From: Psammoneis japonica
Taxonomy: Eukaryota
Assembly (NCBI GenBank): GCA_008632985.1
Contig: QPGO01000099.1
Span: forward strand, 165,679 to 229,678
Direction: 5' to 3'
Length of the DNA stretch: 64,000 nt
The notes beneath the pieces were generated by a model, which was not told the DNA's origin, searched no databases, and worked only from the letters and a program-made list of their open reading frames with translations. The position numbers were made by a program, and so were the translations under genes. Shown in pieces: positions 14,531 through 62,629 of this stretch. The first letter of the stretch is position 1, and each line of letters opens with the position of its first letter.

Positions 14531-16768
14531 CTACAAGCCTTTTCGAATCATGGCCAGGGCCATGTCTTCTTGCGCCTTGACGTCTATGCTGCCACGAGCA
14601 TCCTGGTCATCGCTACTTGATGATGATGACGACGACGATTCTGAATCGCTCTCCTCGTCGCTGCTGCTGCTACTACTAGAAGACCCCTCGTCGTCACTAT
14701 GTCCGCCAAGAGTCACCATCATGGCAGTATCTTGCTGCTGCTCGTCCAATGCACCCTTTGCTTTGATTCGTTTCTGCTTGTGCATTTCCCGTACTCGCTC
14801 CTTTTCCTGTTGACGATCCTGCTTCATATTATCCTCCAACCGCTGACGCACCTTGTCGACATATGATTGATTTGCATCCGCCAACGAGTCCGGTACCTGA
14901 TGCAGAGTGTCCGTATTTTTTAAGGAAAGCATGGTAGGATCCTGTTCCTCTCCGTCGTCATCAAAGACGATTCGTTTATTCTTGATATCTGAACCTCCAT
15001 CTACCTTGATTCTCTTTGCCTTTCGAGATTTGGTAACTTCATGAATGCCACCCTCGGTTGCGTCAACATCCTCCTGGCTCCACTCGTGCCGTTGCTTTAC
15101 AACCAACAAGTCGTCCTCTTCGTTCTCCTCCACGTTTGTATTTTCCAGCGGACGTTTGTTGTTGTCGAGTTTAGCAATCTTTTTCGCCAACTTTTCCGCC
15201 TTGATTTGCTCCTTGAGCTTTTGAAGCTTGTGATTGACATTTTTGGACTTGCGCATCTCCGTTCGATCCTTGAGTTTTTGTAGAAACCGAAGGTTGGGAG
15301 TAAAGGGCAGTCCCAGAGAAGTGGCAAACTCGTCCACGGCCAAGTCCTCCAACTTGAAGATGTCCTTATTTGGCATTAAATGAATCGATCGTAGATAGGA
15401 CTGAAACGCCTTTTTCGCAAGCGACTGTAGTTTAGGATTGGACGCGACAATCGAGGCTGCACGTTGGGTAACAAGAACCGTCTTGGTGGGGTTCATGGCC
15501 AACTTTTTCAACGGCACGCGAGACTTGCTCAGCAATTCCAACATGCCGGCTTCTTCCTGTGGCGTGACACACAATAACGACTTTCCACCACGATTATACC
15601 GTGCTGTTCGTCCAACACGATGAATATACATGTCTTGGTCTTCGGGCGCATCCACTTGAACGACCCAATCGACGCTTGCAAAGTCCAACCCACGCGCCAC
15701 AACGTCTGTCGCAAACAAGACGGCGTTGGGTCGATGGACAAAGTCAAAATAAATAGAGGTTCGTTTTGTTTGTACCAGTTTGCCATGCAATGCCATGACG
15801 GGAATACCGGGTTGAAGTGCACAAAAGAGCTGCCACGCAAAGCGTACTTGGGAACACGATGCCAAGAATATAATCGATTTTGACTTGAGATGTGACTTGA
15901 TAAAGGAATACACCATGTTGAGCTTGTGCTCGAGGGGGACCACAACAACAGACTGAACCAGATTGGATGGAGTAGATGTTGACTCCTTGTCGTGTACACC
16001 AAGGTATTCGGGCTTTTTCAGCGACAACGCGGCCAAATCAGAAACTCGTTTCGTCTGCGTTGCAGAAAACAACAAAGTTTGTCGTTCGCTCGGTAGATAT
16101 TCCAAGATTTGTAGCATTTGATTCCGAAAGCCCATGTCGAGAATTCGATCTGCTTCATCCAATACTAGTATTTGCAAGTTCGAAACGTCAAAGTTTGGTG
16201 TCTGTTCCAAGTGCTGCAACAAACGTCCCGGTGTAGCCACGAGGATATTGGTGGATCCGACATGCTGTTGTTCGACATGATACTCTTTTTTGCCGCCCAC
16301 TACTAGTCCAGCCGACAATGCATGATGTTGACCCACCTTTTTTAATACTTGAAAAATCTGAACCGCAAGCTCCCGAGTCGGACTTAGAACAAGAGCACCG
16401 GGCCCGTCGGAGGGAGTGTATCTCGAGCGAAACAGTTTTTCAATAACCGGAACCAGAAACGCAAGAGTTTTTCCCGAGCCCGTTCGTGCCGCGCCCAAAA
16501 TGTCTCTCCCACACAGCGCATGAGGAATACAAGCGTTTTGTATTTCCGTCATGGTGACAAAGTTAGCTCCATCCAATCCACGCAACGTTGCTTCCGACAA
16601 GGGCAGCGCTCGAAACGAAACCTGCTGACCAAGCGGAGGAGTATACCCTCGATCAGGAGCTTCTGCAGCAATCCGCTGTTCCAGACTCTCAATCTCTTGC
16701 TCTAATTTTACAACATATCTCTCGTCGCCCTGCTTCTTTTGGGGGTAGCGGCGCTTGTACTTGGCCAT
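14531..16768 (-). CDS. DBP4: DEAD-box RNA helicase DBP4/DDX10 (18S rRNA biogenesis)
   Basis: Q motif MTEIQ, GAARTGSGKTLAFL, SPTRELA, TPGRLLQHLEQT, DEADRILDMGF, SATQT, ARGLDF and YIHRVGRTARY. The probable start is MAKYKRR. Confidence 0.92.
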   Translation of the reverse strand: MAKYKRRYPQKKQGDERYVVKLEQEIESLEQRIAAEAPDRGYTPPLGQQVSFRALPLSEATLRGLDGANFVTMTEIQNACIPHALCGRDILGAARTGSGKTLAFLVPVIEKLFRSRYTPSDGPGALVLSPTRELAVQIFQVLKKVGQHHALSAGLVVGGKKEYHVEQQHVGSTNILVATPGRLLQHLEQTPNFDVSNLQILVLDEADRILDMGFRNQMLQILEYLPSERQTLLFSATQTKRVSDLAALSLKKPEYLGVHDKESTSTPSNLVQSVVVVPLEHKLNMVYSFIKSHLKSKSIIFLASCSQVRFAWQLFCALQPGIPVMALHGKLVQTKRTSIYFDFVHRPNAVLFATDVVARGLDFASVDWVVQVDAPEDQDMYIHRVGRTARYNRGGKSLLCVTPQEEAGMLELLSKSRVPLKKLAMNPTKTVLVTQRAASIVASNPKLQSLAKKAFQSYLRSIHLMPNKDIFKLEDLAVDEFATSLGLPFTPNLRFLQKLKDRTEMRKSKNVNHKLQKLKEQIKAEKLAKKIAKLDNNKRPLENTNVEENEEDDLLVVKQRHEWSQEDVDATEGGIHEVTKSRKAKRIKVDGGSDIKNKRIVFDDDGEEQDPTMLSLKNTDTLHQVPDSLADANQSYVDKVRQRLEDNMKQDRQQEKERVREMHKQKRIKAKGALDEQQQDTAMMVTLGGHSDDEGSSSSSSSSDEESDSESSSSSSSSSDDQDARGSIDVKAQEDMALAMIRKGL

Positions 16769-17104
16769 GGTGATGTTTGTTTCTTTCGCAGAAAGAAGAA
16801 AGTGAGCGAGAAAAAAGTGAGAAAAAATGAGTGGGTTCTGCGAACAGCTCAGCACCTATTTGATTCCATCGACTAAAAATCTGCATAGTGCTCGTATCAT
16901 AGTTGTGAATCTGCGATTTAGAGTCTCTCATCTTCGATCGATAGATACCGTAGTCCCATAATTCTAGCTAGAGCAGTATTTTCGTCATTTGCTATTCTAG
17001 TGTAGTCGTCCGTGGTTGAAAGGAAAAAGAAAAAACGCAGCAACACTGCTCCTCGCGTTCCATTCGAATTGTAGTGTGCTGCTACAGATTCGAGCCGCAA
17101 AAGT

Positions 17105-18046
17105 CTATTTGAAAGCCATTTCCTCCTCCTTTTCCGTTTCGGTATCCCTCTCAACCATACTTTGCTCTACTTCATCTTGGTCAAAGACTAAATGGGCAAT
17201 ATCGTGTCCAATCACTTCAATTTCGTGAGTAATCTCTTCCAACTCGTGCTTCAACTCAATGCCAATCTCTTCTGCAGTCGTGTGCGGAAACAAGTCGTCG
17301 GGAAGAATACAATCACCCTCCATTCCAGTGACACAATATGGTTCTTCCTCTTTGAATTCCTTAGTCGACCCGGCAAGAACCGAAAGCCAAAACGTCCAAC
17401 ACAAACCGCATACCGACAGAAACGGGATTTGCAAACTCTCTTGGATAAAACTAAACTGTATAAATTGTATAGGTATCCAAAAGAGCAAGTTCCGTTGCAT
17501 GAGGGGTAAAAAGTTTTGCTTGGCTCGTTCCAGGGCGGCGTCGGCTGACAAGTTTTGTACCATGCCTGTCAATGCAAAAAACACGGGATAATAGAGAAAT
17601 GGCACAATCCCCAATTGACTAGCCAGAGTCTGTTCTGCCGCGGCTGCAAAATCAACCGGTGTTCCCGAAAAAATAGACGTAATATATTGTCCGTGACAGT
17701 GTTGTACAATGATTGGAAACGCCACGTGCTGCAGCGCTCGGTAACACATATCAAAAGCTGCAAACGATGCAGCTCGTCGCTTGTCGTAGTCGTTGGGTTC
17801 GTGCGCTTGAGCGATAGAATCTCCCGCAACCGCAAGAGTCGCTCCTGTTGCCATTTTTGTTGGCAAGGGATGAGCCGCCAATGTGTTCATGTACGCTCCT
17901 AGAATTGGAATGGCGGATGTTGTTGAAGAAGCTGCCGACAGCAATAACGAGTGATCGGGTACAATCAGTGGTGCTAAACTCGATGATCCCGGCAAAGTAC
18001 AAAGCCCGGCCAGCAGCGCTGTAAACTTTCGATAGAGACGTCTCAT
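17105..18046 (-). CDS. Mpv17/PMP22 family membrane protein with N-terminal targeting peptide
   Basis: AHPLPTKMATGATLAVAGDSIAQ...YDKRRA, QLGIVPFLYYPVFF and FWIPIQFIQF motifs. Confidence 0.85.
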   Translation of the reverse strand: MRRLYRKFTALLAGLCTLPGSSSLAPLIVPDHSLLLSAASSTTSAIPILGAYMNTLAAHPLPTKMATGATLAVAGDSIAQAHEPNDYDKRRAASFAAFDMCYRALQHVAFPIIVQHCHGQYITSIFSGTPVDFAAAAEQTLASQLGIVPFLYYPVFFALTGMVQNLSADAALERAKQNFLPLMQRNLLFWIPIQFIQFSFIQESLQIPFLSVCGLCWTFWLSVLAGSTKEFKEEEPYCVTGMEGDCILPDDLFPHTTAEEIGIELKHELEEITHEIEVIGHDIAHLVFDQDEVEQSMVERDTETEKEEEMAFK

Positions 18047-18241
18047 GGCGACTTATGGAGAAATATGTTTCGTTCAGATCAGTTTGATGTGCTTGCAAGA
18101 AAGCTTGAGGCAGTGATAGAAGAAGAAGAGAATGATCGACACTATGCTCAATGCGACTTACACGATTTTTCTTTCGCCCTGCGCTGCCTCGTCGGTGCCT
18201 GTATCTTTGCCGAAAAGTCATGTGCGACCAACCAACACGAT

Positions 18242-18670
18242 GCTGTGTATTGGTGTTCCACCAAAAAGTGCCAAGTTGCACACACACAGACAAACGTAAA
18301 AAACAATTTTTTTTTTTGTTATCACAACACCCGTCACACCACTCTCACTAACTCTCGGTGTTATTTCTCATCAACCAAGCCACGCCCAGAGACATACAGG
18401 GGCGTTTTAGAAACGTCTTTGAACGGTCCATAAGGCTATAACGCGAAAGAGCGAATCTCGTACGTACTGCTAACGAGAATTGGCGAAAATTGACGCGCAA
18501 AACGTTGTTTTGTTCGTGTGAAATCGAGAAAGGTTGTTTGTTCGTACCGAATACCTCTTTCCCCAAACGCTACCTGCCGTCTAACAATCGCCTTTTGTGT
18601 CTTAAATAACGTCCTGTACTTGGTGTCATTGAAAACGATGGGGTACAAATAATATTCAGTAACCTGCCGG
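18242..18670 (+). repeat. ~430-bp inverted repeat, left (TA-retaining) copy
   Basis: Its reverse complement aligns essentially gap-free with 29885-30312. Confidence 0.95.
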
Positions 18671-18726
18671 ACACCGTTTCAGGAGCGCCAGAATACAGTG
18701 TTATCATTTCATTCCTATTCTGAGCC

Positions 18727-20835
18727 ATGAGTGGGAGGGCTCGACAGAAAAAGCGAACGACACAGTCGCTGCGTTCGCCATTATTGTCAAGCGAAGAGAG
18801 CGAAGAGGAAAGTCCCCAAGTTTCGAGGAAGAAATCGAAAAATACCAAACAAACCCGGATCATTCTTGATGACGCAGCTTTGAAGACCGCGAAAGTTCCC
18901 GTGGTGCTCCGACTTTCCGCCATCAATGGAAAGAAGAAGGCTAAATTCAATAATGACTTCTTCTTGGACTATGTTGAACATGATGAACTTGATTGCAGCT
19001 CCAATTTCCAAGACATTGAGCTGGCAATCGACGAAGCGTTGGCCAACAAGGAAGGAAGCATGAAGTTTGAGAGGTCGGTGGACAGTTCAGGCATTGCCTT
19101 CTGTGCACATTCTGAAGAATTTGCACAGGATGAACTCAAGACTGTTCCTTTGGTAGACAAGCAAGACAAGCTACGGGCTTTGAGCAATGATGCATCCTTC
19201 GGCAATGCGCTCAACCACATTGCTTGCCAAGAACTGAGCCGCTCCCGCCGCAGGGTGGACCGATGCATTCTTGATGTTGTCGTGCACATGAAGGAAAAGA
19301 AAGTTGTAAAAGCAAAGAAGCACTCTGGTGGCAGTGGCGGCACCAACAGGAATGGTGGGAATCGGGCTCCTGCTCCCAAAGCCAAGGAGAATGTCAAGGA
19401 TTGTGACACCAAATTAATTGTCGACACACTTGGTCCAGTCGTCAAGCAACTCGACGAGAAGACTGATCAGCATGTTGCAAAGATTCACGAATCAAACTGG
19501 GACATCCTAACGACAATTGAGATCCCCCCACGAAATGCATTTGAGCAAGAACACGGACTTGATCTCGATGCTTTCACAGAAAGAGAAGACATGCATGATG
19601 ACAACGACGACAATCCGAGTTGCTGCGAAGGCATGAAGCACCACATCATTCGTCGAATGATTTTTTTTTGAAGCTCGTGAACTTGATGGGTGCAAGAATG
19701 GCACTGTTGCAGGTGCCTGCATTGGGAGCAAATCCAAACTGTTCGTGTGGATGAATGGGGCAAAATGCAAAATGACCGAGTTGAACAGGCGCACCTCAAA
19801 GGCGTGGGAGATGCTCAATCAGAAGCGCAAAAGCAAGAAAGACAAGAACATCAGAGAGTTGCCATTGGCGTTGGCATGATTGATTCCAACAAAGACGTTG
19901 CACATGACCCAGCTGGTGAGCCGCAGCATGACGACGAAGGTGTTGAAGAAAATGATGCGAGTGAGTTGAGTTCTCCACAGAAGATGGCACCAAAGAATGG
20001 AAGCAGCAAACAATCTAGAGCTGCTTCACAATCGCTGTGCATGGAAGCCAAAACCTTTGCAGAAAAGCTCACAGGAACACCGTGCTCTGATCTTTACGAC
20101 GCTTTCACAGAAGAGGCATTCAATTGCTTCCAGAGTGCCATTGCGTCAGATCCAGAATGCCGCAAGCCAGATCCAGCATGGGCGACATGGCAGCTGGATG
20201 AGAATGACATGGGAACATGGCCTTCAGTGAGTGATTTTGATTTCATCGCCAAAGAGAAATTCATCAAGCGCAACAACGGCAAGCGACCTGAAAAGAGTGC
20301 GCACCCCAGAGTGGATGGCAAGCGTCCGAGCAAAGACGGCTCCTCTGATCTCACACCAGAAGTCCGGGCGACTCTTGAGTGGGGTCGTCAGTCTGAAACC
20401 CGCACAATCAGCGGCAACGCCAATGAAGAGTTCGTCATGCCCGGAACAGCAGTGTTCAAGTTCACTCGGGGTGATGAGAGTGGGGCTGGCGAACCAACCG
20501 CAACCATGAAAGATGCAAATGAGACGATGAAGAGTCTCCGGAAACGCTGCACCCAAGATCGTACCCACAAAGTGTTCTGCATCTCTCAATCAGATCTTGA
20601 CAGATTGAAGGCAAAGGAAATGGAGTGGCAAGTCACCATTGGTCCTGACGATGAGTGGGTCGCCTTGCACTCTGCCGTTAAGACTCTGACGACGAAAGAC
20701 ATTTTGGAGGCACTGCAAACAAAGCAGAGGCAGAGGAATCCAATGAAACTCAAGTTTGATCTGGTGAAGACACACCAGGATGAGGAAGGGGCTGTCCTTT
20801 GCGACAGTGACTGGCAGTGGTGTAAAATGGGGTGA
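18727..20835 (+). pseudogene. Degenerate TE-associated ORF of unknown function, frame break at the T-run near 19661-19669
   Basis: Consecutive 314- and 381-aa ORFs just inside the left IR, nearly Tyr-free, convergent with the DD34E transposase. Confidence 0.55.
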
Positions 20836-20899
20836 TGGGATGAGAGTGGGACAATGTTTGCTGTAGAGTGGCAGCAGTGGAAGTTGCAGTTGCATCTGC

Positions 20900-21790
20900 T
20901 CTTTTCTGCATTTGTGCCAGAGGCGGCGCCTTTTGCTCGCCGCCGCCAAGACGATCATCCGCCTCTGCTTCCTCTTGCGCATGATGAGATGTTGTCCCAG
21001 CTGTTGCAAGTCATCTTCCTTCTCCTCAAGAGAGGCAACCGAAGGAAAATGTTCACAGCCTGGAACACGGGAATGGCGACAAAATGAACGAGCCATTGCA
21101 GGAGCGACACTGTCAAGAGCATCAAGGTGATGCTCGAACCACCGGGTGCTCCCATGTCGCTTCAAGTGCGCCTTGCAGCGACCAAACATCATTTCAATCG
21201 GATTTAGATCAGGGCTGCATGGTGCAGCACAGATGATTGCAGCCCCCATGGCTTCAATCATGTTGATGGTGCAATCAGAATGGTGTGTCGACGCATTGTC
21301 CAGCACCACGATGGACCTCGGCTCACCCTCACTGCAGCTGCCGAGGCATGGAACGAGTTTCTCTTCTGCCCACAATTCAAATCGTTCCTGATCCACAGCT
21401 CCAATGAGGGGATCCCTCTCTTCATCTCCTGAGTTGCCTCGCTGAACAATGTCACACGCTTCCTTCATAAAGCCGTTGATGTCACAGGCAGCAAGCAATG
21501 AGTGCCGAACGCGTTTGTCAATCTCGAAGGACGTTGACCGAACAGGAGTTTCACCCCTTTTTGACCACCAACGCCTCTTTCGTGCTGCACTTCGATCCTT
21601 GTGAGACTCGTCCAAGAATGTCAGCATGTCGGGTTCATGAGCCGCGGCTTGCAAAGCGTTGGGGTGCCTCGCCCTTTCTTCCTCGTCCATTTCGATCGCC
21701 TTGTCGGTTGCGACTTGAAGTGAGTGCCCCACGTCCTTTCTGAGTTTCTCCCATGTCTGACTTGGACTCCACTTTTTATTGGTTCCTCCT
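20900..21790 (-). mobile_element. IS630/Tc1/mariner-type DD34E transposase, catalytic part, mutated
   Basis: FLDES...VVLDNASTH-(34 aa)-APCSPDLNPIE. The family consensus is PYSPDLNPIE. Upstream in frame is KKWSPSQTWEKLRKDVGHSLQV. Confidence 0.9.
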
Positions 21791-22008
21791 TTATGGCAGG
21801 AACTCTGGACACGAAGTGAGGAGGTGTGGAACCCGGGCTGGTTTGGATTGCCATGCGTGCGAGCATCAAATTTTAGAGCTTTGATCTTTGCTTGCCACCA
21901 ATCATTTTTTAAAAAATTCGCACGCTTAAATGATGGGTTCGCAATTAATTAATGTGCGACGTAATTCTACATTTATGTTTTAACATTGTGTCAAAAAATG
22001 GCGATTTA

Positions 22009-22398
22009 GACGCGTTCCAAGTCTAGGTGGGACCTCGCACTACTGAACTGTGACATCGACAGTTTTTTGAATCACGTCGTATGTCGCGCACGTAGATTTC
22101 TACGTGATTTTTTTGATATTTTGTGTCATTTTACGGTACACTTATTGAGCGATCCGTCCAACAACTTTTGACATTTTTTGTTACAGCGCGATTCTATAAT
22201 GTCTTAAGAATCGCGTAGGGCAGGTGCATTTGCAAAAACGTCGAGTGGTAAGAGGCATAATTGTACCACAAACTTGGCCGTTTATTTGATGTTGAAGATA
22301 AATATATCCATTAATTAAATTCTCGTACTACGGAGCTCGCACGTAGAATTCTACGGGCCCAATGTCACACGGAGTCCCACCTAGGGCTGGAACGCGTC
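22009..22398 (+). mobile_element. 390-bp MITE, ~25-bp TIR (GACGCGTTCCA..CTAGGTGGGAC), 4-bp TSD TTTA
   Basis: ttta|gacgcgttcc ... ggaacgcgtc|ttta. It is a near-identical inverted copy of 27474-27863. Confidence 0.92.
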
Positions 22399-22698
22399 TT
22401 TAATTCTTGCATTCGTGCATGGACACATTATAAGAAGAGACGTGGGTTTCCCCTTTTTTGATGATTCTGGTGTGATTGTTCTATGGTGGATGACAAGAGA
22501 ACTGTCCTGACGTTGTGCATCACTGGTTGCTGAGTGTGTCTGTCATTGCAATGATGCACTGACATCGATTTGTTAGATTGGACCCTTTGTTTTCTGTTGG
22601 TTGTTGCCGGGCACGCCTGCAAGCCCGCGTGCAAAGCTTGGAACATTTTCCAAAATGCAGAAACAATTCCCATGTGCAGCACCAAAATGTTCTGTGTG

Positions 22699-25600
22699 TC
22701 AATTGGACTGCAAAATGTCATCATGCTGTTCATTGGTGAAGCACGTGACACTTTTTCCTTCCATCAACCGGAGCAGGGCGTCACACCCGTCCGGCAGTCT
22801 GCACAGACTTAAGTCTCTCTTCAGCGGTTGCCGAAGACACAGACCATTTCTGGTCTCAACCCTGGAGAGCATGACACATGCCCAGTTTTGTGTGTGGCTC
22901 CAGCCACGCACAAACACATTGTCGACACCGCTTCCTTGAAGCTTGTGTCCTGCAGTCGCGTTGTTTGTTGTGAATGGCAATTGGGTTGCTTTCAGTCCGA
23001 GCACATGTTTCTCTTTTTCCTCAGCTGTCATCTGTTGGGTTGGGTCCTTTAAACAGGCTTTGAAAGTGGAAGACTCAGGCTTGAGCGAAAAGGTGGGTGG
23101 ATCGATGCTTTTGTTGCTGTGCTTGAGTTCTGCATGATCCACCTGGGATGCTGTGACACCTCGAATGGATGTTCCACAGTCCAAGACCACTTGCGATGAA
23201 TGTTCTCCTGGTTTCAGCACGACTTTTGCCACAGTTGCTTGTGTTCCGTTCGCAACACCATTTGCCACATTTTCATTGCACGGGATCATGACTCTACATC
23301 CCTTGTGTGTTCGTAATGCTGGATCAAGCCTGCCAGATTGCATTTCCACATCGCTCTCTCCACAGTTTTTCCAGAATGTTTTGTACACCGGGAAAGGCCT
23401 GTGCTGTCTTGCTCCGTCACGCACTTGTAAATCGTCACTGAAAATGGCTGGAGAGTCCAAGACTTCTCCATCTCTTTGGTGCAGTCTCTTGGTCCTTTCC
23501 TCAAACAAGGCTGTGTTGATGGAGTCTCTTTCTTTGTTTCTGTGTGATGCATGTTCAATGTTCTCTGGCAGTTGTTGACCCTTTCTCACTGCTCTTTCAT
23601 TGATTTTGTCGATGTCTTCGAGAGTCGCTTCGCCATCTCTAAATCGTTTTAGCAAACTGCCCCATTCTGGATCCTCACTGAATCTGTGCATCCCATGCAA
23701 CTGGATGTGGCAGTTCACCCATTCCTGGAATTCGGCACAGGTCTCCTTGCACAGAGGGTGCATTCCGTGTCCAACTGGCTCGAGTTGTCTCAGGTCCCCT
23801 GCAAACACCACATTTGCACCCCCACAAGGCCTGTCTAAATTGGATTTCACGACAGATGGATTAGCATGTAATTTTTCTAAATCTCTTCTGCAAGCAAATG
23901 ACATTTCGTCGACAATCAGCAGACGAGTGTCACTCCAGCTTTCCATTTGTGTTTCTGTTGTTTCTTTTTTCCTGTTTAGATGGGCAACTCTGTGAATGGT
24001 GTCTCCTTTCAGAATTGTCGCTGCAACTCCGGTCATGGCAGTGACGGCAATTGTTTTTGCAGTGAATGGTCGTTCAATTGAAGAGCAACATTCTCTTGCG
24101 CACAAAACAACAAGATCGACAACAGTGGATTTGCCACTTCCTCCTGCTCCATGCAAGAAACAAATTAACTGTGTGCCTCTTTGTTCTCGCACTTCAACCA
24201 ACTTGGCCAATCTCCTGCACTCTTTGTTAAATTCGTGTCCAATTCCTCCTCTTACATCACCACTTGCTTGTTCTCCCAGAGCGTCTTTGCAGTGCGTCAA
24301 AATGAAAGTTCCTGCCATGACTTCAAAAGCACGACTTTGATGTGGGTCTAGCTTGGCTTTTTTTGACCAATCAACTGAGCTTTTGGCTGAGCCGTTAGCT
24401 TCAAGGACATCAACGGCTTCTTCCGAATTAGTTGTGTCTTGGAAAGATCGTCGAATGCGTCCAGTCTTGGTCAGTGATGCTCAAACTGCATCTCGTTTCC
24501 CAATTTGAGGCACAGGTTCTTCATCTGCTTGCATGCTGTTTTCATTGTCTTCTTCATTAACCTCAATTTCTGGTGGCTCCATTGTTTCTACGACAGGGAC
24601 CGAATTGATGACAGTGTTTTGATCTGAAGAAGTCATGCACATGCATGCCAAGTGCTGACATCCTGCAAGGTGACTTCCCTTCTGTCTGGTTTGTTTGCCA
24701 CTTAAATTCGTGGGTGCGGCTGCTTCATCATTTGCTTCCATCCCGTCTTTGTGTTCATGGTTCACCAATTCATCTAGAAGAGCATCAAGCATTTGTCCTT
24801 GCAAAGCCGTTCCGATGTCGTCTTCGGTGTCGCTTTCGCACCTTGTGCTAAATTCATTGTCGTCCGATGCATGCTCGCGGGCAGTGCGTTTAAGAAAATC
24901 TGATGTGCTTTTTAATCGCAGACAATTAGATTTTGCATCTTGCAGATTTTGCAAGAATTTCAGATTTTCTTCAGTGACGATTTCTCTCTCCACCGCTTGA
25001 CGGAATGANNNNNNNNNNNNNNNNNNNNNNNNNNNNNNNNNNNNNNNNNNNNNNNNNNNNNNNNNNNNNNNNNNNNNNNNNNNNNNNNNNNNNNNNNNNN
25101 NNNNNNNNNNNNNNNNNNNNNNNNNNNNNNNNNNNNNNNNNNNNNNNNNNNNNNNNNNNNNNNNNNNNNNNNNNNNNNNNNNNNNNNNNNNNNNNNNNNN
25201 NNNNNNNNNNNNNNNNNNNNNNNNNNNNNNNNNNNNNNNNNNNNNNNNNNNNNNNNNNNNNNNNNNNNNNNNNNNNNNNNNNNNNNNNNNNNNNNNNNNN
25301 NNNNNNNNNNNNNNNNNNNNNNNNNNNNNNNNNNNNNNNNNNNNNNNNNNNNNNNNNNNNNNNNNNNNNNNNNNNNNNNNNNNNNNNNNNNNNNNNNNNN
25401 NNNNNNNNNNNNNNNNNNNNNNNNNNNNNNNNNNNNNNNNNNNNNNNNNNNNNNNNNNNNNNNNNNNNNNNNNNNNNNNNNNNNNNNNNNNNNNNNNNNN
25501 NNNNNNNNNNNNNNNNNNNNNNNNNNNNNNNNNNNNNNNNNNNNNNNNNATGACGTTGGTTTTGTCATGAGCATGAGCACTCCAGAGCAATCTTCTTACA

Positions 25601-28600
25601 GTTTCCGCTGCATCAGAAGAATGCTTTCTAAGCTCTGTCGCCAGTTTGTCAGTGACATTCAGCACTTCTTGGCAAGTGGCAGTGTCGTCTTTTTGGGTGT
25701 CTTTGAGTGTGTGCTCAATGGTGCACTGTGCAGAGGGGCCTGGCATCAGAGTTGCGATGTTTGTGTTGCATGTCAGCTTAGATCTGCTGATTGCAGGGCA
25801 CGACACATTCTGGAAAGCATCGCATTTTCTCCTCTTGGGGACAATTTCTTTGACGCATCTACAACGGAATGAGCCANNNNNNNNNNNNNNNNNNNNNNNN
25901 NNNNNNNNNNNNNNNNNNNNNNNNNNNNNNNNNNNNNNNNNNNNNNNNNNNNNNNNNNNNNNNNNNNNNNNNNNNNNNNNNNNNNNNNNNNNNNNNNNNN
26001 NNNNNNNNNNNNNNNNNNNNNNNNNNNNNNNNNNNNNNNNNNNNNNNNNNNNNNNNNNNNNNNNNNNNNNNNNNNNNNNNNNNNNNNNNNNNNNNNNNNN
26101 NNNNNNNNNNNNNNNNNNNNNNNNNNNNNNNNNNNNNNNNNNNNNNNNNNNNNNNNNNNNNNNNNNNNNNNNNNNNNNNNNNNNNNNNNNNNNNNNNNNN
26201 NNNNNNNNNNNNNNNNNNNNNNNNNNNNNNNNNNNNNNNNNACATGCCACAAACTCTGGGTTTGTCCAGCATTTAGTGCAATGAGGGCAATGCGCGAACA
26301 TGCCATTTTTTGATTTCTGACCGTGCTTGTGCCTCAGGTGTCGAAGCTGCTGATTGCTGACCATTTTAGGCACAGTGCGACAGGCAAGATTAACAGTGCA
26401 ATCATGATCAAAAGTTTCTGTGATGGACAGTCGAGTGTAATCCTCGCCACATGTCAACCCAGTTGTGCAGATCCGACTGGTCAGTTTGGACAGTGTTCTT
26501 TTACCATCACGCCTAAAATCTCCATTGTCAGAATGCAGATTGTCTCTTGCTGTGTTTGTGTCTTCAAACCATGCCTGAATGTGACCGTGTGCCGAGAGTC
26601 TACCTTGTTCTTCCATTGCAGCTGTGAAAGCGGAGGGTCTCCCTGTGTAGAATTCAAAATCTTCTCTGGGTGAATTCCTTTTTAAGTCCCATCCTGTTGC
26701 TTCTTCTGTGACGATTTCCAATGACATTTCGAGCGCAAAAGCCGTGACACCTGGGTGCTCCACACGAAGCTCGTTTCTTGCCTTGGCCTTTTCGGTCAAT
26801 TCTTCATCCGACATTTCTGTCACATCTCTGCCTTTGTCGATGAGCATGTCCGCACAAATTTGAACTAAAAAGGAATTGGCATCATCGGGGCTTGTCGTTG
26901 AAAATGCTCCAGGTTGTCCAAAGTGGTGTTGGCAGGTTTCAGCATTTCTTCTCATTTTTTTTTGCTGCTTCATTTGTGTGTGGAACAGATGCCGACACCA
27001 CATCCACTGCACTTAAGAAACGATGTCCCAATGCGCAATTCCTGCGTTCACCGGTCTGTCTGTCACACATGGCACGGTCGATGTCGTCTTGTGTCAGTTC
27101 ATTTGAGAATTGTCTGGCTTGATTTTTGTCTCTTGCTTTCCATCCAGCACTGTGCACCATTCGTTGCTTCACAGTCAGATTGCACAGGGTCAGAACAAAG
27201 AGTTGCTTGTGGAAGTGGGGCTGAGAAATGCGGGCCAAGTGATCTGCGCAATGTGCTAGATTTGTGCAGTCGGCGAGACTCCCATCTTCTTTCATTCTTG
27301 TTTCATTGATGCCGCCACGCCCACAAGGAAATTGCAGCAAGCAAGCATTTGCCAGGTTGTTGTCCTTAAAGTCACTGACTGATTCTTTCAAAAGATCAGC
27401 TTTGAATTCAATGTCAAAACCGCTTGCAGCTGCATCGTGCACCAAGTCTTTGAAGCTGTCTAAATTACGTTGTGACGCGTTCCAGCCCTAGGTGGGACTC
27501 CGTGTGACATTGGGCCCGTAGAATTCTACGTGCGAGCTCCGTAGTACGAGAATTTAATTAATGGATATATTTATCTTCAACATCAAATAAACGGCCAAGT
27601 TTGTGGTACAATTATGCCTCTTACCACTCGACGTTTTTGCAACTTCGCCTGCCCTACGCGATTCTTAAGACATTGTAGAATCGCGCTGTAACAAAAAATG
27701 TCAAAAGTTGTTGGACGGATCGCTCAATAAGTGTACCGTAAAATGACACAAAATATCGAAAAAATCACGTAGAAATCTACGTGCGCGACATACGACGAGA
27801 CTCAAAAAACTATCGATGTCACAGTTCAGCAGTGCGAGGTCCCACCTAGACCTGGAACGCGTCTTGTCCACCAGTTGTTGAAGAAACGGCACCATTGGGG
27901 AAATGAACACTGTGGGACTCCGTGGTTTCAATGTTTGCATTTTCGCTTTCGTCCAAACTGCCATTGTCCACTAAAACTGGATTCTGCAAATTGCTTCGCA
28001 CTTCCTCTAGATCGATGTCTTGATTCATCCAATTCTCGTGGTGATGGACAAGCCATTCCAGTGCTCTCATTGCACAGTGAGTCCTGATTTTGTTCTTTTG
28101 TCTGGCCATTCGCCTTTGCTCTGGTGTCATTTTGCCGGATGCCAACACAACCACATTTTGATGAAGGTTCAACACGTCAAAGTGCATGATGGTGCGGGCG
28201 ATGCTCTTCATGTTTGTCTTGCAATGGGAAAGACCACCTTGCAGTTTCTTCTGTTTGCCACCGACAAAACTGAAGCAGCAGCCATGTGTTTTCACAGGTG
28301 TCAACAAAGCTGGCTCTACTTTGGCAAGACACGATAATTCAGGTGGTGGTGTTCCAAAACAGCAATTGTTTGCTGTTGCGCACAGAGGCACAGAAGCAGT
28401 GCAGAGACTTCTTTTGCAAGGCCTGCAACAAGTGAATCCTTCAGACCTTCTGTTGTCGTTCGGAACAACATGTCGAGCTCTTGGCAAAAGCAACAGGTCG
28501 GAAATCCATCGGCAATCCCGTGGAATGTGTTCGTCATCGATGCGACAACAATCGTGCGGGTCTTCCGATGCTTGGTTCCATTCAGATGGAGTTGACAGGT

Positions 28601-28976
28601 GTCTGGTTTCTTTCAATTTGTTGACAGAAAGTCGAGCAGTCTGAGACGGTTTTGACAATCTGTCACACACCAAACAAACCCAAGGGATGTGCTCGTTTCC
28701 GTTCCTGCAGCGAAGCTTTTCAAAACGTCTGTTTGTGTTGTCTTGGTGCCTGGTGTTGCTGTCATCCACAAGACAGCTTGTGACGGCAGGCTCACACTGC
28801 GCAAAGATGAGTTGAACCAACAACGCAGCAATGGGTGCACACCAGATGACACGATGACCCATGAGACTTGCAATGAGAACAATCTGAGCAAAGTCAATGT
28901 GATCAACAGATGGCACGTTGTAGATCGCTCGTCTCGATTTGCTTGACATGTCATCGTTCGCTCGTGCGCTCTGCAT
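22699..28976 (-). mobile_element. Helitron-like Rep(HUH)-PIF1 helicase element, degenerate, interrupted by a MITE and two N gaps
   Basis: N-terminal ATANN..FGTPPPELS.L..VE and QFPCGRGG; PGAFSTTSPDD; HUH motif EEQGRLSAHGH; Y2-like QCTIEHTLK. PIF1 motifs are GAGGSGKS, TAMTGVAA, LLIVDEMS, FAGDLRQLEPV, VANGT, GHKLQG and CVMLSRV. Confidence 0.85.
27474..27863 (-). mobile_element. 390-bp MITE copy, 4-bp TSD TTGT, inserted in the Helitron-like ORF
   Basis: ttgt|gacgcgttcc ... ggaacgcgtc|ttgt. It splits the Rep ORF between the 27846-28976 and 26939-27445 segments. Confidence 0.92.
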
Positions 28977-29419
28977 TGGGATGCACTGCTGACAGCAGCG
29001 GCATCACACCGGTGAGGTCATGAACGTCAGCGGGAACGACATCTTGTGGAAGTTCAATGTGCGATGATGTGTCTTGCAGTTGAAGTCGGTTCTGCCCACT
29101 GCGACTGCACGACGTTTGTACGACTGTGACGCCTCATGTCTCGATCTGCTGCCAAGTGCAACAGATGTGTGTTGTTGCAGTGTGTCCTCATGATCGGCAC
29201 GTTCCTTTCATCCCACTTGTGAAATGGAAGGCGTCCGTCGATTGGGTGCAACAGCCCTGCGGCAGCATGTGCTGCACACATTGTGTGGGATGCATGCCAG
29301 ACACATGTTCTTGCTGACGCAGCACAGCATGTTTCAACGAATTCTGCTGTGCAAATCCCACTCATCATGCAACCGTGGCTGGATGTGAGGAACTGCTGGA
29401 TGGCCATTGCATCAGCAAT

Positions 29420-29700
29420 GTCATTCATTCTCAGTGCTGGCTCATCCAAACACAGCCCAGGTTCCTGATCAACGACGTTCTTCAAGATGGCGGCATGCCG
29501 GTGTGTCCACAAGTGTCGCTGGTGCCCTGTGCAAGATCTTGTCATCCAACCATCAGTTTCAGCAGGAGTCTCACCATGCTGAAGATGATGATTGAAATGT
29601 CTTTGACATGTTGAAGGATCATGGGTGTCCCGAGGAAGACAGAGATTGCTCGCTTGCTTGCACAGGTTGGAGAGCTTGGTTTTCGCGCCAGCTCCGACTT
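29420..29700 (-). pseudogene. Probable N-terminal (HTH) half of an IS630/Tc1-like transposase
   Basis: HGETPAET...ILKNVVDQEPGLCLDE..LRM resembles the ..P.LYLDE.. HTH segment of IS630-like transposases. Confidence 0.5.
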
Positions 29701-29884
29701 TGACAATGTCTGAGCCCAACCCGATTAGAACAAACGGAGATGACAGCCTGTTGAAAACCACGGCGATTGTAACGCCGGACCATTGGGTCAATCTTCATGG
29801 TGTTGCTTTGCTGATTTCCCAAAGCAAGAGTCCGCTCTGATTGCTCTTTCATTGAGTGGATGATTTCCGTGACAAAATGCCCCC

Positions 29885-30312
29885 CCGGCAGGTTGCTGAA
29901 CATTGTTTGTGCCCCATCGTTTTCAATGACACCAAGCACAGGACGTCATTTAAGACACAAAAGGCGATTGTCAGACAGCAGGCAGCGTTTGGGGAAAGAG
30001 GTGCTCGGTGCGAACAAACAACCTTTCTCGATTTCACACGAACAAAACAACGTTTTGCACGTCAATTTTCGCCAATTCTTGTTGGCAGTGCGTGCGAGAT
30101 TTGCTCTTTCGCGTTGTGGCCTTGTGGACCGTTCAAAGACGTTTCTAAAACGCCCCTGCATGTCTCTGGGCGTGGCTTGGTTGATGAGAAATAACGCCGA
30201 GAGTTGGTGAGAGTGGTGTGACGGGTGTTGTGACAACAAAAAAAAATTTGTTTTTTACGTTTGTCTGTGTGTGTGCAACTTGGCACTTTTTGGTGGAACA
30301 CCAACACGCAGC
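29885..30312 (-). repeat. ~430-bp inverted repeat, right (TA-depleted) copy
   Basis: It differs from 18242-18670 almost only at TA and CG dinucleotides. Confidence 0.95.
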
Positions 30313-30524
30313 TTGGACAAAAGGGTTTAGTCCCATGGGGGAATGCGCCACACGTGCGACTGTTGCCACCATGGCAAAACCTGTGGTTGCTCCACCACCA
30401 TCTTGGCACTTTTTGGTGGAACACCAACACGCAGCTTGGACAAAAGGGTTTAGTCCCATGGGGGAATGCGCCACACGTGCGACTGTTGCCACCATGGCAA
30501 AACCTGTGGTTGCTCCACCACCAT
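30279..30524. repeat. 123-bp tandem duplication (30279-30401 / 30402-30524)
   Basis: The unit cttggcactttttggtgg...gctccaccaccat is repeated apparently exactly. Confidence 0.9.
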
Positions 30525-33099
30525 CGCACTGCCGCAGAGGGCAACACAGCACGCACTGACACAGCAAACAGCATGCCAACAACACATTCCGCAATCACTT
30601 TTGGGCAATTGTTGGCAAATGTGACCAAACATTTCATCTTTTCGAAAGAGGAACCTCCAAGGAGCTGCTGCAACAAGGTTGCTTGCCTCCTTTGCTGGTG
30701 TGGTGCTCTTGACAAAAAGACCGCCAGTGATTTTGCCGCAACTTCTCATGGCACAAAAGAGCAAAAAACACTGGCTTGAGAGCTGCATCTCTGCCAGCAG
30801 TGCTGAAACAACCAAACCAACCCACACTTTTGTCGCACTGAGTTGCAGTGCCAAAAAAGTGGCTTCAGCTGGCCGAGCTCATTGCCACTGGAGAGGACAC
30901 TGAGCAGCATGCCAGCCAAAGCAACAGAGGATTTTTGACCCCTGTCATTGTTGAAAACTTGTGAGCTCTCATCATCTCAATTTTTGGAAAGCTTCCCCAG
31001 CACCCAGCAGCATTTTGTGCACATGTCACCGGCGGCTGCCCAGGGGGCACGTTCTTGGTGTGCTCCCTCTCCCCCCCTTGAGACCCACCTCCTTTTTGTC
31101 AGAATGTTGCCAAGCATCTGCTGCAAGCTCCTCATTCTCTTGCAGTCAGGAGAAGCCCAAATGTGACCCAGTCAAAATGTGACAGCTGTGACTCATGCTT
31201 TGCCTGCCACTCTGAAGAGCAGCGCATGGCATGTCTCTTGAGCTGCGCGCCTTGTTCCCTCAAGCTTCCTCTCTGATGTGTGCTCAGCCCAAAACAAAAG
31301 ATGGTCAGGAGGCCTGTTGCATGGAGCAGCAGATGTCAAACATGCAGCCATGGAAGGCAGGCACCAAGGACTCCAGCAGCATGTTTTGGTTGCTCTGTGT
31401 GGCCATTGTGTGGTGTGCCAAGAGCTGTGGTCAAAAGGCCAAAGCACTGGTGGCTGCAAAGACAGCCAAAGTGACAACAGAAAGCAACATGAAGCAAGTG
31501 TGTGTTTCAAGTGTTAGAGGCAGACTCTGTCTTGACCAAGCATGATGTTGTCTCAGCTTCTTGAGATGGCAGCAATCTTTTGAGGGAGTTGAGGGATTTT
31601 GACTCAAGATTTGTTCAGCAACATTGCACTGCTTTTGGCTCAACTGCACAGTCATCTTTGAGACAGAGCTTTGCTGAGAAAATTGGAGCTTTTTTTACAG
31701 TGGGCACAAACTGCACTGCCATGTCTTGGCCACCCCAGGTCAAATGCCCCTGAGTGGCTGCACCAGCAATGATGTGCAAACTGCGTTGTTGGGCCACATG
31801 GCTCTTGCTGGCATCATCACAAAGGCAGGTTGTGTGGTGGAACTTGCACCCACGTGTCATCACTTTGAAAGACCTTGCAAATGTGACTCAAGCACTGTCA
31901 TGGCACAGCAGCTCAGCCACAGTGATGCCTTTGCATGGTCACAGCCCACATCTCCTGCCAGTCAAAAGTGCTTTGCACACCTGGTTGAGTGTGGGGTGGC
32001 AGAGTGCTGGTTGCCGATGCATGGCATCTGGGGCAGACTTGTCATTGCTGCAAACACTGAGCAACATTGACCCCTGCACCACTTCAAAAGATTCACCCTC
32101 AACAGACACTTTTTCCAGACTTGGGTGCACAAACATGAAAAAAATGCCCCTTTTTGAATGAAGCACACAGCCCAAACTGCAAACACTGAGCACCATGAGC
32201 CCACACCACTTCAAAAGACCCGCCCTCAACAGACTTGGTTGTTCCAGACTCGGGTGTGCAAACGTGAAAAAAAAACCCTTTTGCGCGAAACTTGCAGTCC
32301 AAACTTTTGGCACCACCCTCAAAAGCAAAAACACAACAATCTTCAAATGTGGTGTCATGAACACATGCAAAAAGGTCTCTTGTGTGTGCCCTGAAAAAGT
32401 CTTGAATGGGTGACAAATTGTGTTTTGTCAAAACACTTTGAGCACAAGTTGCTCTCAATGAATTAAATGAGACACTCATTGGCGCTAAAGCTTGAGAAGA
32501 CGTGAGAAGAAATTGAACTTAGCCCATGCACAATGGCACCCACTTTGGACCCTTTTTTCACTGCTTTGCCAACATGGATGACTGGAACACTTGCATCAGT
32601 TGATGGTGTGGATGAAACACACACAGAAGTGGAAAGGAACTTGTCCTCAGAGGCACCAAATGGTGAGTGAAATGAGGCCAAAATGTTGTTGCCAACAGAT
32701 TTGTCTTGCTTCTTTTGCTGTGCTGCAGCCTGCACCAAGCATTTTTCCTGCTGTTGTTGATGACACAGACTGCACAAAAAAAGCAGGCCATCATCATTGC
32801 TGAAAGCCATGGCCATTCTGGCTGCAATTTGCTTCAACAACACAGCCCTTGCACTGGGAAGTGACATCCTTTCCAGACTGGAGGTGTGCAAAGCTGCACT
32901 GCACCAGCCTTGGCACATTTGTGGCTGGACAAAACCTGTCAGAAAAGTGTTGCAAAGGGAGACAGCTTCAAAATGAGTGCAGCCCAACATTGCTGCACAA
33001 GCCACAGCTGCTCAATGCCTGCAGCAAGCTTTGTTCAAAAATGAGCTTGTTTGGCTCTTCTGGCAAGGTTTCTTCACCACCATTCAAAAGAACAAGGAG

Positions 33100-34540
33100 C
33101 TGACCCCTCTCTTGTTGAAGAAGTCAGCGCCAATGTGTGCACTCATGCTCAACCCACCTCACCCATTGCTGGTGGCTAGACAAAATGGGCTTCACCAACA
33201 ACTTACAGCCCAGTCATCTGAGGCTTGGGTGCCCCTGATCAAAATGTTTCTGGTGTTCAGAGTTTTGTGGATGAATCACTCTTTGTGCTGTGCATTGAAA
33301 AACAGAGCTGGCAAGAAAGCGTGGCACTCTGCATGTTGGACAGAGGCAAAATTGCAAATTTTTTTGGAGACACCCACACAAATGAAAAGGATTTGCTTCT
33401 TCCGTTTGCCACTCAAGCATCATTTCACAAGTTCAATGCAAGTCGTGCAGTTTTGTTTCACTCTGCAAATGCAAGAGAACAGGCGCATGCTGAGTCGGCC
33501 GGAAAAGTGCTGTGAAACAACATTGCCACATTCGCAGCAAGTGGCAGCCCAAAAATGTCTGCATCAAAGGGGGAATTGGTTTTGTTGAAGTCCAAGTCTG
33601 TGTCCAAATCTGTTGTTGCAAACTGCAAAGTGCTCGCGACAGGTGTTGACAAGGTGGGTTGGGACCCAGTTGCAATGGCTGACCCTGTTTGCATTGTCGC
33701 AGTCCTTGCACATGAAATGATTTGGCATGCAAGCTGGAAAGGAATTGACAAAGACCGTGGTTGCATTTTTGTTTCTGTTCCAGTTGCTTCTCAGGAAGAA
33801 TCACAGTCCAAGGATGCCAATGGATGCAAAATTTTCACTGCTGCTTTTGAGGCCATGGTTGGTCTGGATCCCAAATTACGTCAAGACGTCTTGTTTGTGA
33901 TTGAAGAGAGTGACAGACTCAGAATGCCCTTGAAGGATGCCAAGTTCCCTCCTCTTGTCCTTGACTCCTTTGTGCTTCCTGATTCATTGCCATTTGAAAT
34001 GAAAAATGACATCATGAAAATGCAAAGTTCTTCACAGCCACAAAGAGGAAGGGATGATTTTAGGGAGTTGGTTGAGCACACAGAGGGTGAAAAAAAAGAA
34101 TGGGAGGCCAGGTGTTTCTCATCAACAAGCTCTCAAGAAGGCTGGTGATGTGTGGGATGGGGTGGATCTTGGAAATTGGCTGTGCAAGCAACGGGTGGCC
34201 AAGTGGAAGGGGAAACTGGATGCTTCTTGACAAAGATGACTGGAGAAGACTGGCGTTGAATGCTGCATTTTGGCTGAGTGACAGGAAGCCATGTTTTCAT
34301 TTCTGGGTCAATTCAATGAACGGGAGGGACATTGCAGGGTGCCTCAATGACACATTGAAAATGGAAAGAGACTTGGAGTTTGGATGGGCAATCAAAAGCA
34401 AGCATGGAAGGCGGGAAAGCTGGAGAACAGCCGCATGAACCGACTGCTGGATCTTGGCATTGTTGTTGCTAGAAAGCAGTCTCTGCAATGTGGGAACTTT
34501 GTTGGTCTCGTGTGTGTTTCTGTTTTAAAGAATGAAAACA
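33100..34540 (+). pseudogene. Hypermutated, frameshifted paralogue of the HA-domain helicase at 129-2249, including 3' flank
   Basis: ANCKVLATGVD, AFEAMVGLDP.LRQDVLFVIEESDRL and QKQAWKAGKL..NRLLDLG are shared. GY->GC occurs twice and the stop region gagtagt->aagcagt. Confidence 0.9.
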
Positions 34541-62403: not shown

Positions 62404-62629
62404 GACGTCATCGTTGTTTAACAATTTAACGGCGTAACAAACCTCCCCTATTTTTTTTAACGGCGTAACAAACCTCCCCGATTTTTTTTAACGGTGTAAC
62501 AACGGCTTTTAATCAATATTTTAATGCTGGATAAAGCATTATGACACCAAAGGAAAAGCCGTTGTTACACCGTTAAACCCAATAGGGCAGGTTTGTTACG
62601 CCGTTAAATTGTGTAACAACGATGACGTC
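62404..62629. mobile_element. 226-bp fold-back (MITE-like) element with subterminal TTAACGGYGTAACAA repeats
   Basis: gacgtcatcgttgtt...aacaacgatgacgtc ends; three repeats on the left arm and two inverted on the right. Confidence 0.75.

Follow-up and report, generated by a model that had tools for sequence, protein, structure and literature searches.

Why have two nearly identical ends of one transposon met opposite mutational fates? The question is raised by a 64,000-nucleotide stretch of the genome of the diatom Psammoneis japonica (GenBank assembly GCA_008632985.1, contig QPGO01000099.1, positions 165,679 to 229,678 of the forward strand), hereafter called the window. Here a Tc1-like DNA transposon lies upstream of a host gene of the Mpv17/PMP22 family. 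Its left terminal inverted repeat (TIR) has kept its TA dinucleotides, and its right TIR has lost most of them to CA or TG. A first-pass annotation, made from the sequence alone, had noticed this contrast and had placed the left repeat about 200 bp upstream of the Mpv17 start; we measured 196 bp from the ATG at 18046. Our reading is that a process converting TpA to CpA or TpG acts on domains defined by position, and that a single Tc1-like transposon landed at the junction between Mpv17 and an old hypermutated block, where its left arm was left unexposed. We assign this reading as a whole a probability of about 0.58. The features on which it turns are listed below, with dinucleotide frequencies given as observed-to-expected ratios (O/E).

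17105-18046, minus strand: Mpv17/PMP22-family host gene (Pfam PF04117, E value 2e-15), open reading frame (ORF) intact, ATG at 18046
18242-18670, plus strand: left TIR of the Tc1-like transposon (I2L), TA O/E 0.70, CG O/E 1.35
18671-19300, strand not applicable: graded edge, where hypermutation tails off within unique DNA of the transposon interior
29885-30312, minus strand: right TIR (I2R), TA O/E 0.14, CG O/E 1.03
30276-30521, plus strand: tandem duplication, 2 x 123 bp, 99% identical, each unit combining 37 bp from the outer end of the right arm with 86 bp of flanking DNA
30522-34460: older hypermutated block, TA O/E 0.03, CG O/E 0.20, ending in a helicase/HA-domain fragment

The alignment of the two arms covered 428 bases and contained 28 mismatches. 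At 20 of these the left arm reads TA where the right arm reads CA or TG (12 changes of TA to CA and 8 of TA to TG), and the reverse direction did not occur at all (binomial probability about 1e-6). The other mismatches were six of the CpG type (CpG on the left in four and on the right in two), one transversion and one further transition. The left arm holds 24 TAs and the right arm 4, so the asymmetry described in the first-pass annotation amounts to 0/24 against 20/24 converted TAs. Loss of CpG in the right arm was limited to 4/27. The four TAs common to both arms stand in the contexts GTAA, TTAT, TTAG and TTAA, and every TA outside resistant contexts is gone from the right arm, the conversion of which is saturated. 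Nine sites in the susceptible context RTAY (R, purine; Y, pyrimidine) are retained in the left arm. As both units of the tandem duplication at 30276-30521 hold converted letters, this duplication postdates the conversion of the right arm.

To place the arms in the composition of their surroundings, dinucleotide ratios were calculated along the window, the G+C content of which is 47% and which is interrupted by N gaps at 25009-25549 and 25877-26241. Counted in 1-kb steps, TA O/E in the host parts is about 0.45-0.85 and CG O/E about 0.9-1.2. Departing from this are seven blocks, within which the same counts gave TA O/E of 0.0-0.2, CG O/E of 0.1-0.8 and CA/TG O/E of 1.4-1.9.

About 4.7-6.1 kb: TA-depleted block 1 of 7
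18.9-21.8 kb: TA-depleted block 2 of 7
22.45-27.4 kb: TA-depleted block 3 of 7
27.87-34.5 kb: TA-depleted block 4 of 7
43.0-44.2 kb: TA-depleted block 5 of 7
47.0-50.1 kb: TA-depleted block 6 of 7
56.7-60.4 kb: TA-depleted block 7 of 7

Together the seven blocks occupy about 23 kb of the window, with a TA O/E of 0.03-0.22 per block. CA and TG were gained about equally, both reaching O/E values of 1.4-1.9 in every block, and the G+C content of the blocks is unchanged at about 0.46-0.51. This composition therefore indicates a change of TA to CA or TG on both strands, together with a slower change of CG to TG or CA. The depletion is most easily seen in the block at 30522-34460, which contains 9 TAs where about 177 would be expected at the host rate. 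The CG O/E in the blocks ranges from 0.04 to 1.1 with a median of 0.51, and TA O/E and CG O/E are correlated (Spearman 0.69 over 125 windows). A search for 500-bp windows with CG O/E below 0.6 and TA O/E of at least 0.4 found none. Since CpG is lost only where TA is lost, CpG decay shares its domains with TpA loss. Neither block composition nor the right arm displayed a strand bias that would hint at a single-stranded or RNA intermediate. The hypermutated blocks contain a Tc1-like transposase, a Helitron, a relative of a miniature inverted-repeat transposable element (MITE) and pseudocopies of gene fragments, and the flanking host ORFs are TA-normal. A Pfam scan of the 92 ORFs of the depleted blocks returned a BEACH fragment, an HA-domain fragment and a low-complexity match to DA_C (E 1.5e-6) in which no stretch passed alone; the remaining Pfam matches were weak (E >0.003).

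A comparison of two copies alone gives no direction of change, and outgroups are needed for this purpose. In an alignment of the transposase with six homologues, inspected by eye, the window carries His or Cys at 7/7 conserved Tyr columns. A script run over 103 homologues also yielded seven conserved Tyr columns, of which the window aligns at six, and 6/6 were His or Cys. In addition, the reading frame of the transposase overruns the end of its homologues by about 110 residues, as expected from a lost stop codon. The Tyr columns and the read-through thus indicate that TAY became CAY or TGY and that the stop was lost. None of the 103 homologues had more than two Tyr-to-His/Cys columns, although this is a weak test, as degenerate copies are seldom called as proteins.

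Further evidence came from a comparison of the window with contigs of the public run X1 from the same organism, for which 40 of 512 differences were listed. Among these, all 29 differences in the transposable-element part were transitions: 14 form seven adjacent TG/CA pairs, six set TA against TG or CA in both directions, seven are of the CpG type and two are other transitions. Altogether 20 of the 29 are TA-derived. Adjacent TG/CA pairs imply a TA ancestor that was converted independently on different strands, and the listed differences therefore point to conversion in place, after the copies or alleles had separated. Because near-identical contigs differ by TA conversions both ways, hypermutation was probably active until recently.

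The sequence context of conversion was then derived from the 112 TAs that survive in the blocks. These comprise 6 RTAY, 40 mixed and 66 YTAR sites, compared with 568, 853 and 288, respectively, outside the blocks (chi-square 126, p 4e-28). Scaled by length, survival is about 2% for RTAY, about 8% for mixed sites and about 40% for YTAR. Among the survivors ATAT is absent, and ATAC/GTAT are tenfold under-represented. Counted by hand, 15 of the 20 right-arm conversions have a pyrimidine 3′ of the edited A. Such a rule amounts to a preference for the A in T-A-Y or, on the complementary strand, for the T in R-T-A.

We next turned to the edge of the domain. The Mpv17 region up to the left arm (17105-18241) is TA-normal, with a TA O/E of 0.57. 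From 0.70 in the left arm, TA O/E declines to 0.25 at 18717-19000, 0.13 at 19001-19500 and 0.05 at 19501-20500. The last fully susceptible RTAY site lies at 18843; beyond it only partly susceptible or resistant TAs occur up to about 19.3 kb, followed by saturation. The fading of TA over about 18.7-19.0 kb, as reported in the first-pass annotation, is thus real and extends slightly further. The left edge of the block at 4.6-6.1 kb, beside a divergent ORF start, is likewise graded, with RTAY sites at 4766 and 4888. Unlike these edges, the borders of the MITEs described below are sharp steps at target duplications.

The flanks of the transposon differ as well. On the left, 18100-18241 is TA-normal; on the right, the DNA from 30313 onward is depleted and only TTAG sites are left. 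The block at 30.5-34.5 kb is the oldest, judging from its CG O/E of 0.20 compared with 0.6-0.8 in the transposon and the Helitron. A TA-normal left flank and an old, depleted right block together indicate that the transposon landed at or very near a pre-existing boundary between promoter and hypermutated DNA.

The interpretation of the arms as two ends of one element depends on the anatomy of the intervening DNA, which holds the following features. A third relative of the MITEs, located elsewhere in the window, is included.

18727-19671 and 19690-20835, plus strand: two same-frame ORFs inside the transposon, with two stop codons between them
20593-21777, minus strand: C-terminal part of the transposase, Tc1-like DDE_3, hypermutated (Pfam DDE_3, E 1e-15)
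21778-29410, minus strand: Helitron insertion splitting the transposase gene, recognised from Pfam domains, a contig without the insertion and composition; contains two N gaps
22009-22398, minus strand: MITE copy I1L, 390 bp, TIRs of about 45 bp, target duplication TTTA (22005-22008 and 22399-22402)
22699-24318, minus strand: PIF1 helicase of the Helitron (Pfam E 5e-16)
26242-27012, minus strand: Helitron_like_N of the Helitron (Pfam E 5e-5, below the Pfam cut-off)
27474-27863, plus strand: MITE copy I1R, 390 bp, TIRs of about 45 bp, target duplication TTGT (27470-27473 and 27864-27867), within the Helitron reading frame
27846-28976, minus strand: DUF6570 of the Helitron (Pfam)
29411-29791, minus strand: N-terminal 127 codons of the transposase, ATG 94 bp from the inner end of the right arm
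57700-58105, plus strand: third MITE relative, hypermutated, with only its termini in common with the other two, in the 56.7-60.4 kb block

Some of the 103 transposase homologues are named Tc1-like transposase. The part that starts at 21777 aligns from its residue 1 to residue 136 of P0123, with 51% identity over 256 residues (E 2e-92). Residues 20-125 of P0123 are matched by the codons running from 29791 to 29411 (E 1e-6), a stretch of 127 codons that by eye also resembles the N-terminus of P0122. The coordinates place the two halves, 29791-29411 and 21777 downwards, in one frame. As this split, in-frame transposase adjoins the right arm, the 429-bp arms are the TIRs of one transposon of about 4.44 kb (18242-21777 plus 29411-30312). 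A transposase of the DDE_3 type between terminal inverted repeats is the arrangement of Tc1/mariner-IS630 elements. Of the two ORFs inside the transposon, 18727-19671 returned no homologue in our search. The second, 19690-20835, is convergent with the transposase and has eight distant relatives (best E 7e-26); a Pfam scan of seven of them found six without a domain and one large Calx-beta protein. This ORF may be a passenger gene.

The DNA that splits the transposase (21778-29410) is an insertion, because in a contig with 98.4% identity to the window 21777 is connected to 29418 by seven letters, which represent a diverged copy of 29411-29417. It was assigned to the Helitrons since DUF6570, Helitron_like_N and PIF1 all lie on the minus strand. 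Canonical Helitron termini (5′ TC, 3′ CTRR with a hairpin, insertion between A and T) were not recognised; there is a 6-bp hairpin near 21782-21803, and the ends were placed from the contig. The TA O/E of the Helitron is 0.18 in the helicase and Rep part (22403-24999 and 26242-27469) and 0.06 in 27868-29410. A patch at 21778-22008 was considered as a second spared region of normal TA content and rejected: its 11 TAs are 7 YTAR and 4 mixed sites with no RTAY, and in the absence of RTAY sites the patch is saturated rather than spared.

Might the inner arms 21991-22398 and 27474-27881 belong to one element as its ends? This was ruled out, because target duplications of their own mark them as two separate MITEs. 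At both sites contigs skip exactly 394 bases with four shared letters; the joint of 27469 to 27864 is found at a depth of 890, and 28 contigs stop matching at 27863/27864. The family is plainly very abundant, with a summed contig depth of about 96,000 compared with 55-290 nearby, and 2102 of 4651 placed contigs fit two places. Short and non-coding, with TIRs, target duplications of their own and a high copy number, these elements have the properties of MITEs. I1L and I1R contain 29 and 27 TAs (O/E 0.90 and 0.91) and differ from one another by 17 unbiased mismatches. In its title, the first-pass annotation had made location deep in the transposable-element block the deciding factor; this does not hold, since two MITEs deep in the block are fully TA-normal.

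Contigs of the run also provide a view of the locus without the transposon. In a contig of 1402 bases that matches the Mpv17 side at about 87% identity, 18099 is followed by 178 letters and then by 30496, so that both arms and everything inside them are missing. This second version of the Mpv17 locus (17202-18099 joined to 30496-30811) lacks the 12.4 kb between and has an ordinary depth of 71.5. The sample holds two diverged copies of the Mpv17 region, which may be an allele, a homeologue or a paralogue. At several host positions two letters occur at similar depth in the run contigs. Summed contig depth, which is no measure of copy number, is about 210 on the arms and 84-138 on the neighbouring unique DNA; this roughly twofold value fits two copies rather than a dispersed family.

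With this anatomy in place, we asked what directs the process. The first-pass annotation had argued that targeting does not follow homologous pairing, and the arms bear this out: with a single transversion in 428 bp they were near-identical, and their fates are opposite. The stretch at 18.9-21.8 kb has a single-copy-like contig depth and is nevertheless saturated. Neither repeat pairing nor copy number is the trigger, because single-copy-like DNA was converted, very abundant MITEs were not, and one of the twin arms was spared. Guidance by small RNA homology should have struck both arms, given their near identity. On the sequence evidence, a positional domain acting in cis is well supported, with a soft edge a few hundred bases wide and an extent equal to that of CpG decay. 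Such a domain would correspond to methylated, silent chromatin, and either the Mpv17 promoter or the left repeat may form its barrier.

The first-pass annotation had offered a second instance of asymmetry in a pair of helicase sequences.

129-2249, plus strand: helicase ORF, TA-normal
33386-34537: helicase relative, TA-depleted, degenerate fragment

One of the two is indeed TA-normal and its relative depleted, with 34 and 3 TAs, respectively, in the aligned parts. Their differences run 16:1 in the direction TA to CA/TG and 29:1 in the direction CG to TG/CA. The pair is not a recent duplication: with 74% identity and 99 transversions among 228 mismatches, these are old paralogues and consequently uninformative on the treatment of a fresh duplication. 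The ORF at 129-2249 ends in at least four tandem repeats of the helicase-associated (HA) type of about 68 residues, with internal direct repeats spaced 204 bases apart.

The following course of events would account for these observations. The old block beside Mpv17 would already have been hypermutated when the Tc1-like transposon inserted at its edge. From the old block the domain would then have extended through the right repeat, saturating the transposon up to the graded edge; as this edge would have ended just inside the left repeat, that repeat would never have been exposed. After saturation of the transposon the Helitron would have inserted. It would be the later arrival, because the TA O/E of 0.18 in its helicase and Rep part exceeds the 0.05-0.08 of the surrounding transposon and because it is absent from the 98.4%-identical contig. 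The two MITEs would have inserted last, postdating most of the activity and so staying unconverted. As for the enzyme, an adenine deaminase with T-A-Y as its substrate and a thymine modifier with R-T-A as its substrate would fit equally well.

Several observations weigh against this reading. The gradient at the edge is modest, with 9 TAs in 784 bp (18717-19500) compared with 10 in 2277 bp (19501-21777; Fisher p 0.036). Depleted DNA begins 45 bp (4575 vs 4530), 152 bp (43015 vs 42863) and 200 bp (46991 vs 46791) from the starts of divergent, long putative ORFs at three other blocks, while at Mpv17 it begins at least 670 bp away. Promoter proximity alone therefore does not predict the sparing of DNA located 196-625 bp from the Mpv17 ATG, and these three edges count against the simple rule that active genes set the boundary. 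No matching target duplication was found at the transposon ends (18241/18242 and 30312/30313), the right of which has been rearranged by the 123-bp tandem duplication. The 178 intervening letters of the 'empty', 87%-identical contig are unseen, and a low-depth contig of X2 represents at least one further diverged copy of the right end, which keeps a TA lost in the right arm. The nature of summed depth and the listing of 40 out of 512 contig differences, both mentioned above, belong on the same side.

Could the left arm simply be younger, having arrived by an independent later insertion or by gene conversion or recombination from an unconverted copy? Young insertions do remain TA-normal in the block, as the MITEs bounded sharply by their own 4-bp duplications demonstrate, and the X2 contig provides another diverged right end that has retained TA. 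However, between the two arms lies a transposase with its 5′ end next to the right arm, the arrangement of one element, and the 87%-identical contig lacks both arms together with the interior. Arm depth is just about twice the single-copy depth, and the arms show just one transversion in 428 bp. There is no step in composition at 18670, only the fade across unique DNA to about 19.3 kb. The first-pass annotation had itself considered a separate, younger insertion with a target duplication of its own, and no such duplication surrounds the left arm. We therefore regard a younger left arm as unlikely. A somewhat less probable alternative holds that sequence targeting, through RNA or homology, strikes both arms and that selection purges hits from the left arm because the Mpv17 promoter now lies in it. 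Intergenic regions in diatoms are short, and the left arm begins only 196 bp upstream of the Mpv17 ATG. Against this, all 24 left-arm TAs were kept over 429 bp, up to 625 bp from the ATG, and selection is not expected to protect every site. The unique DNA beyond the arm (18671-18843) retains susceptible TAs too, and an abundant MITE family that was not hit argues that homology and copy number are no attractant.

The edge might instead be a historical accident, the product of a few bursts or processive tracts coming from the right with no barrier at the host gene. Episodic activity has been described in Bigelowiella natans, where 11/15 lines were active (bioRxiv 10.64898/2026.01.13.699255), unconverted MITEs fit pauses in activity, and the distances from edge to ORF vary among the other blocks. 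Yet saturation, with essentially no RTAY left in the right arm and the interior, needs many hits and so implies a repeatable stopping place, and the same graded edge is seen at the 4.6-6.1 kb block beside a divergent ORF start. This is the least improbable of the alternatives, though still an unlikely one. By far the least credible is that the direction is reversed, the left arm having gained TA by C-to-T change at CpA in the manner of repeat-induced point mutation (RIP), or that the blocks are natively TA-poor foreign DNA. Direction is indeed not obtainable from two copies alone, but the TA O/E of the left arm (0.70) equals the host background and that of the right arm (0.14) is far below it. 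Moreover, His or Cys stands at every conserved Tyr position of the transposase, the adjacent TG/CA differences between copies need a TA ancestor, and the TAs common to both arms stand in exactly those contexts that resist conversion throughout the blocks. A RIP-like gain of TA in the left arm was rejected on these four grounds.

Among known systems, the process matches the TpA hypermutation of the chlorarachniophyte B. natans. There, de novo changes are almost exclusively TpA to CpA or TpG in two integrated viral regions, at a rate of about 1e-7 to 1e-6 per site per generation, with 11/15 lines active and a measured local mutation rate about 1000-fold above that of the rest of the genome (bioRxiv 10.64898/2026.01.13.699255). 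That genome also has TpA-poor, CpA/TpG-rich clusters in which DDE and reverse-transcriptase domains are over-represented, and the preprint names an ADAT2-like candidate (bioRxiv 10.64898/2026.01.13.699255). As in B. natans, A:T changes to G:C at TpA, giving CpA or TpG depending on the strand, and is confined to foreign or mobile DNA; indirect hints of episodic activity are found here also, in the unconverted young MITEs and the independent TG/CA outcomes. The present case differs in that the host is a diatom, a stramenopile, and in that a fossil signature and differences between copies take the place of measured rates. The window also contains saturated DNA, with TA O/E of 0.03-0.2 compared with 0.45 in the giant-virus (nucleocytoplasmic large DNA virus) region of B. 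natans, and its blocks have lost CpG. The main text of the Bigelowiella preprint makes no mention of flanking or trinucleotide context, boundaries or diatoms; data on context or boundaries may be in its supplements. The RTAY preference, the graded edge and the asymmetry within one element are described here. A literature search for TpA or TA loss in connection with transposons, hypermutation or diatoms retrieved the Bigelowiella preprint alone, and no report from a diatom was found. The window thus provides a diatom instance of the process, at saturation.

Other systems resemble it in part. RIP, known from Neurospora and other fungi, changes CpA to TpA, raises TpA and AT content, needs a duplication and strikes both copies. 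It shares with the present process dense transitions that disable mobile elements and blocks of skewed dinucleotides. Here, however, TpA is destroyed with G+C unchanged, single-copy DNA is struck, and a twin copy and a high-copy MITE are spared. As the direction is opposite, the process is not RIP, and the RIP framing of the first-pass annotation fails both on mutation direction and on dependence on duplication. Decay of CpG through 5-methylcytosine resembles the loss of CG to TG/CA in the same blocks and probably marks the same domains, but CpG loss is the slower, minor component and does not explain TpA loss. Hyper-editing of retroelements and viruses by ADAR (A to I) or APOBEC (C to U) likewise produces clusters of transitions in mobile or foreign sequences. 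The ADAR family is metazoan and prefers G on the 3′ side, in contrast to the 3′ pyrimidine preferred here. On the 5′ side ADAR prefers U (bioRxiv 10.64898/2026.01.13.699255). Unlike in ADAR/APOBEC hyper-editing, the targets in the window include DNA transposons and a Helitron, which are altered in place and on both strands equally. Finally, 5-hydroxymethyluracil (5hmU) in dinoflagellates is tied to transposon silencing and preferentially replaces thymine in TA and TC (PMC11572971). Dinoflagellates are another lineage of the Stramenopiles, Alveolates and Rhizaria (SAR), and a change of T to C at R-T-A reads as A to G at T-A-Y on the opposite strand. TC is unaffected here, and the passages of PMC11572971 considered here contain nothing on 5hmU as a cause of T-to-C hypermutation.

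Several further features of the window complete the picture. The host ORF at 14531-16855 (minus strand, 774 residues) is of the DDX10 type, and its best relatives are diatom proteins with 57-66% identity, Fragilaria, Fistulifera and Thalassiosira being named. One depleted block contains a BEACH-domain fragment (48795-49262, minus strand, Pfam E 4.6e-9). Like the helicase/HA fragment at 33386-34537, it shows that copies of host-type gene fragments occur in the depleted blocks as well. In the same region, 48661-48769, in depleted DNA, is 90% identical over 109 bp to the TA-normal 52504-52612, located 3.8 kb away. A palindromic stretch of about 226 bp (62404-62629) occurs in TA-normal DNA, with 68-base arms that are 90% complementary and 90 bases apart. 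Loss of the stop codons TAA and TAG, with TGA as the sole remaining stop, results in long overlapping ORFs in several frames and on both strands, for example at 28000-34500. Such false ORFs, together with Tyr-to-His/Cys changes and read-through, could mislead gene callers in diatom genomes.

To date, a single preprint on a single alga has described TpA hypermutation of invading DNA (bioRxiv 10.64898/2026.01.13.699255). The present locus offers three handles on its mechanism. Near-identical repeats with opposite fates argue for positional rather than homology-guided targeting, and the four-base rule, by which RTAY is converted and YTAR spared, is one that any candidate enzyme must reproduce. 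The overlap with CpG decay would point to methylated chromatin as the platform. We tentatively propose that diatoms, like Bigelowiella, may possess a heritable base-editing defence that would be recruited in cis to methylated or silent domains, would saturate RTAY sites fast and would meet a barrier of about 0.3-0.6 kb at active promoters. If so, the split fate of the twin repeats would represent a natural test of how this system is aimed, and the role of enzyme would fall to an ADAT2/TadA-like DNA adenine deaminase or to a thymine dioxygenase with a mispairing product. Its presence in both Rhizaria and Stramenopiles would then make it an old defence of the SAR lineages.

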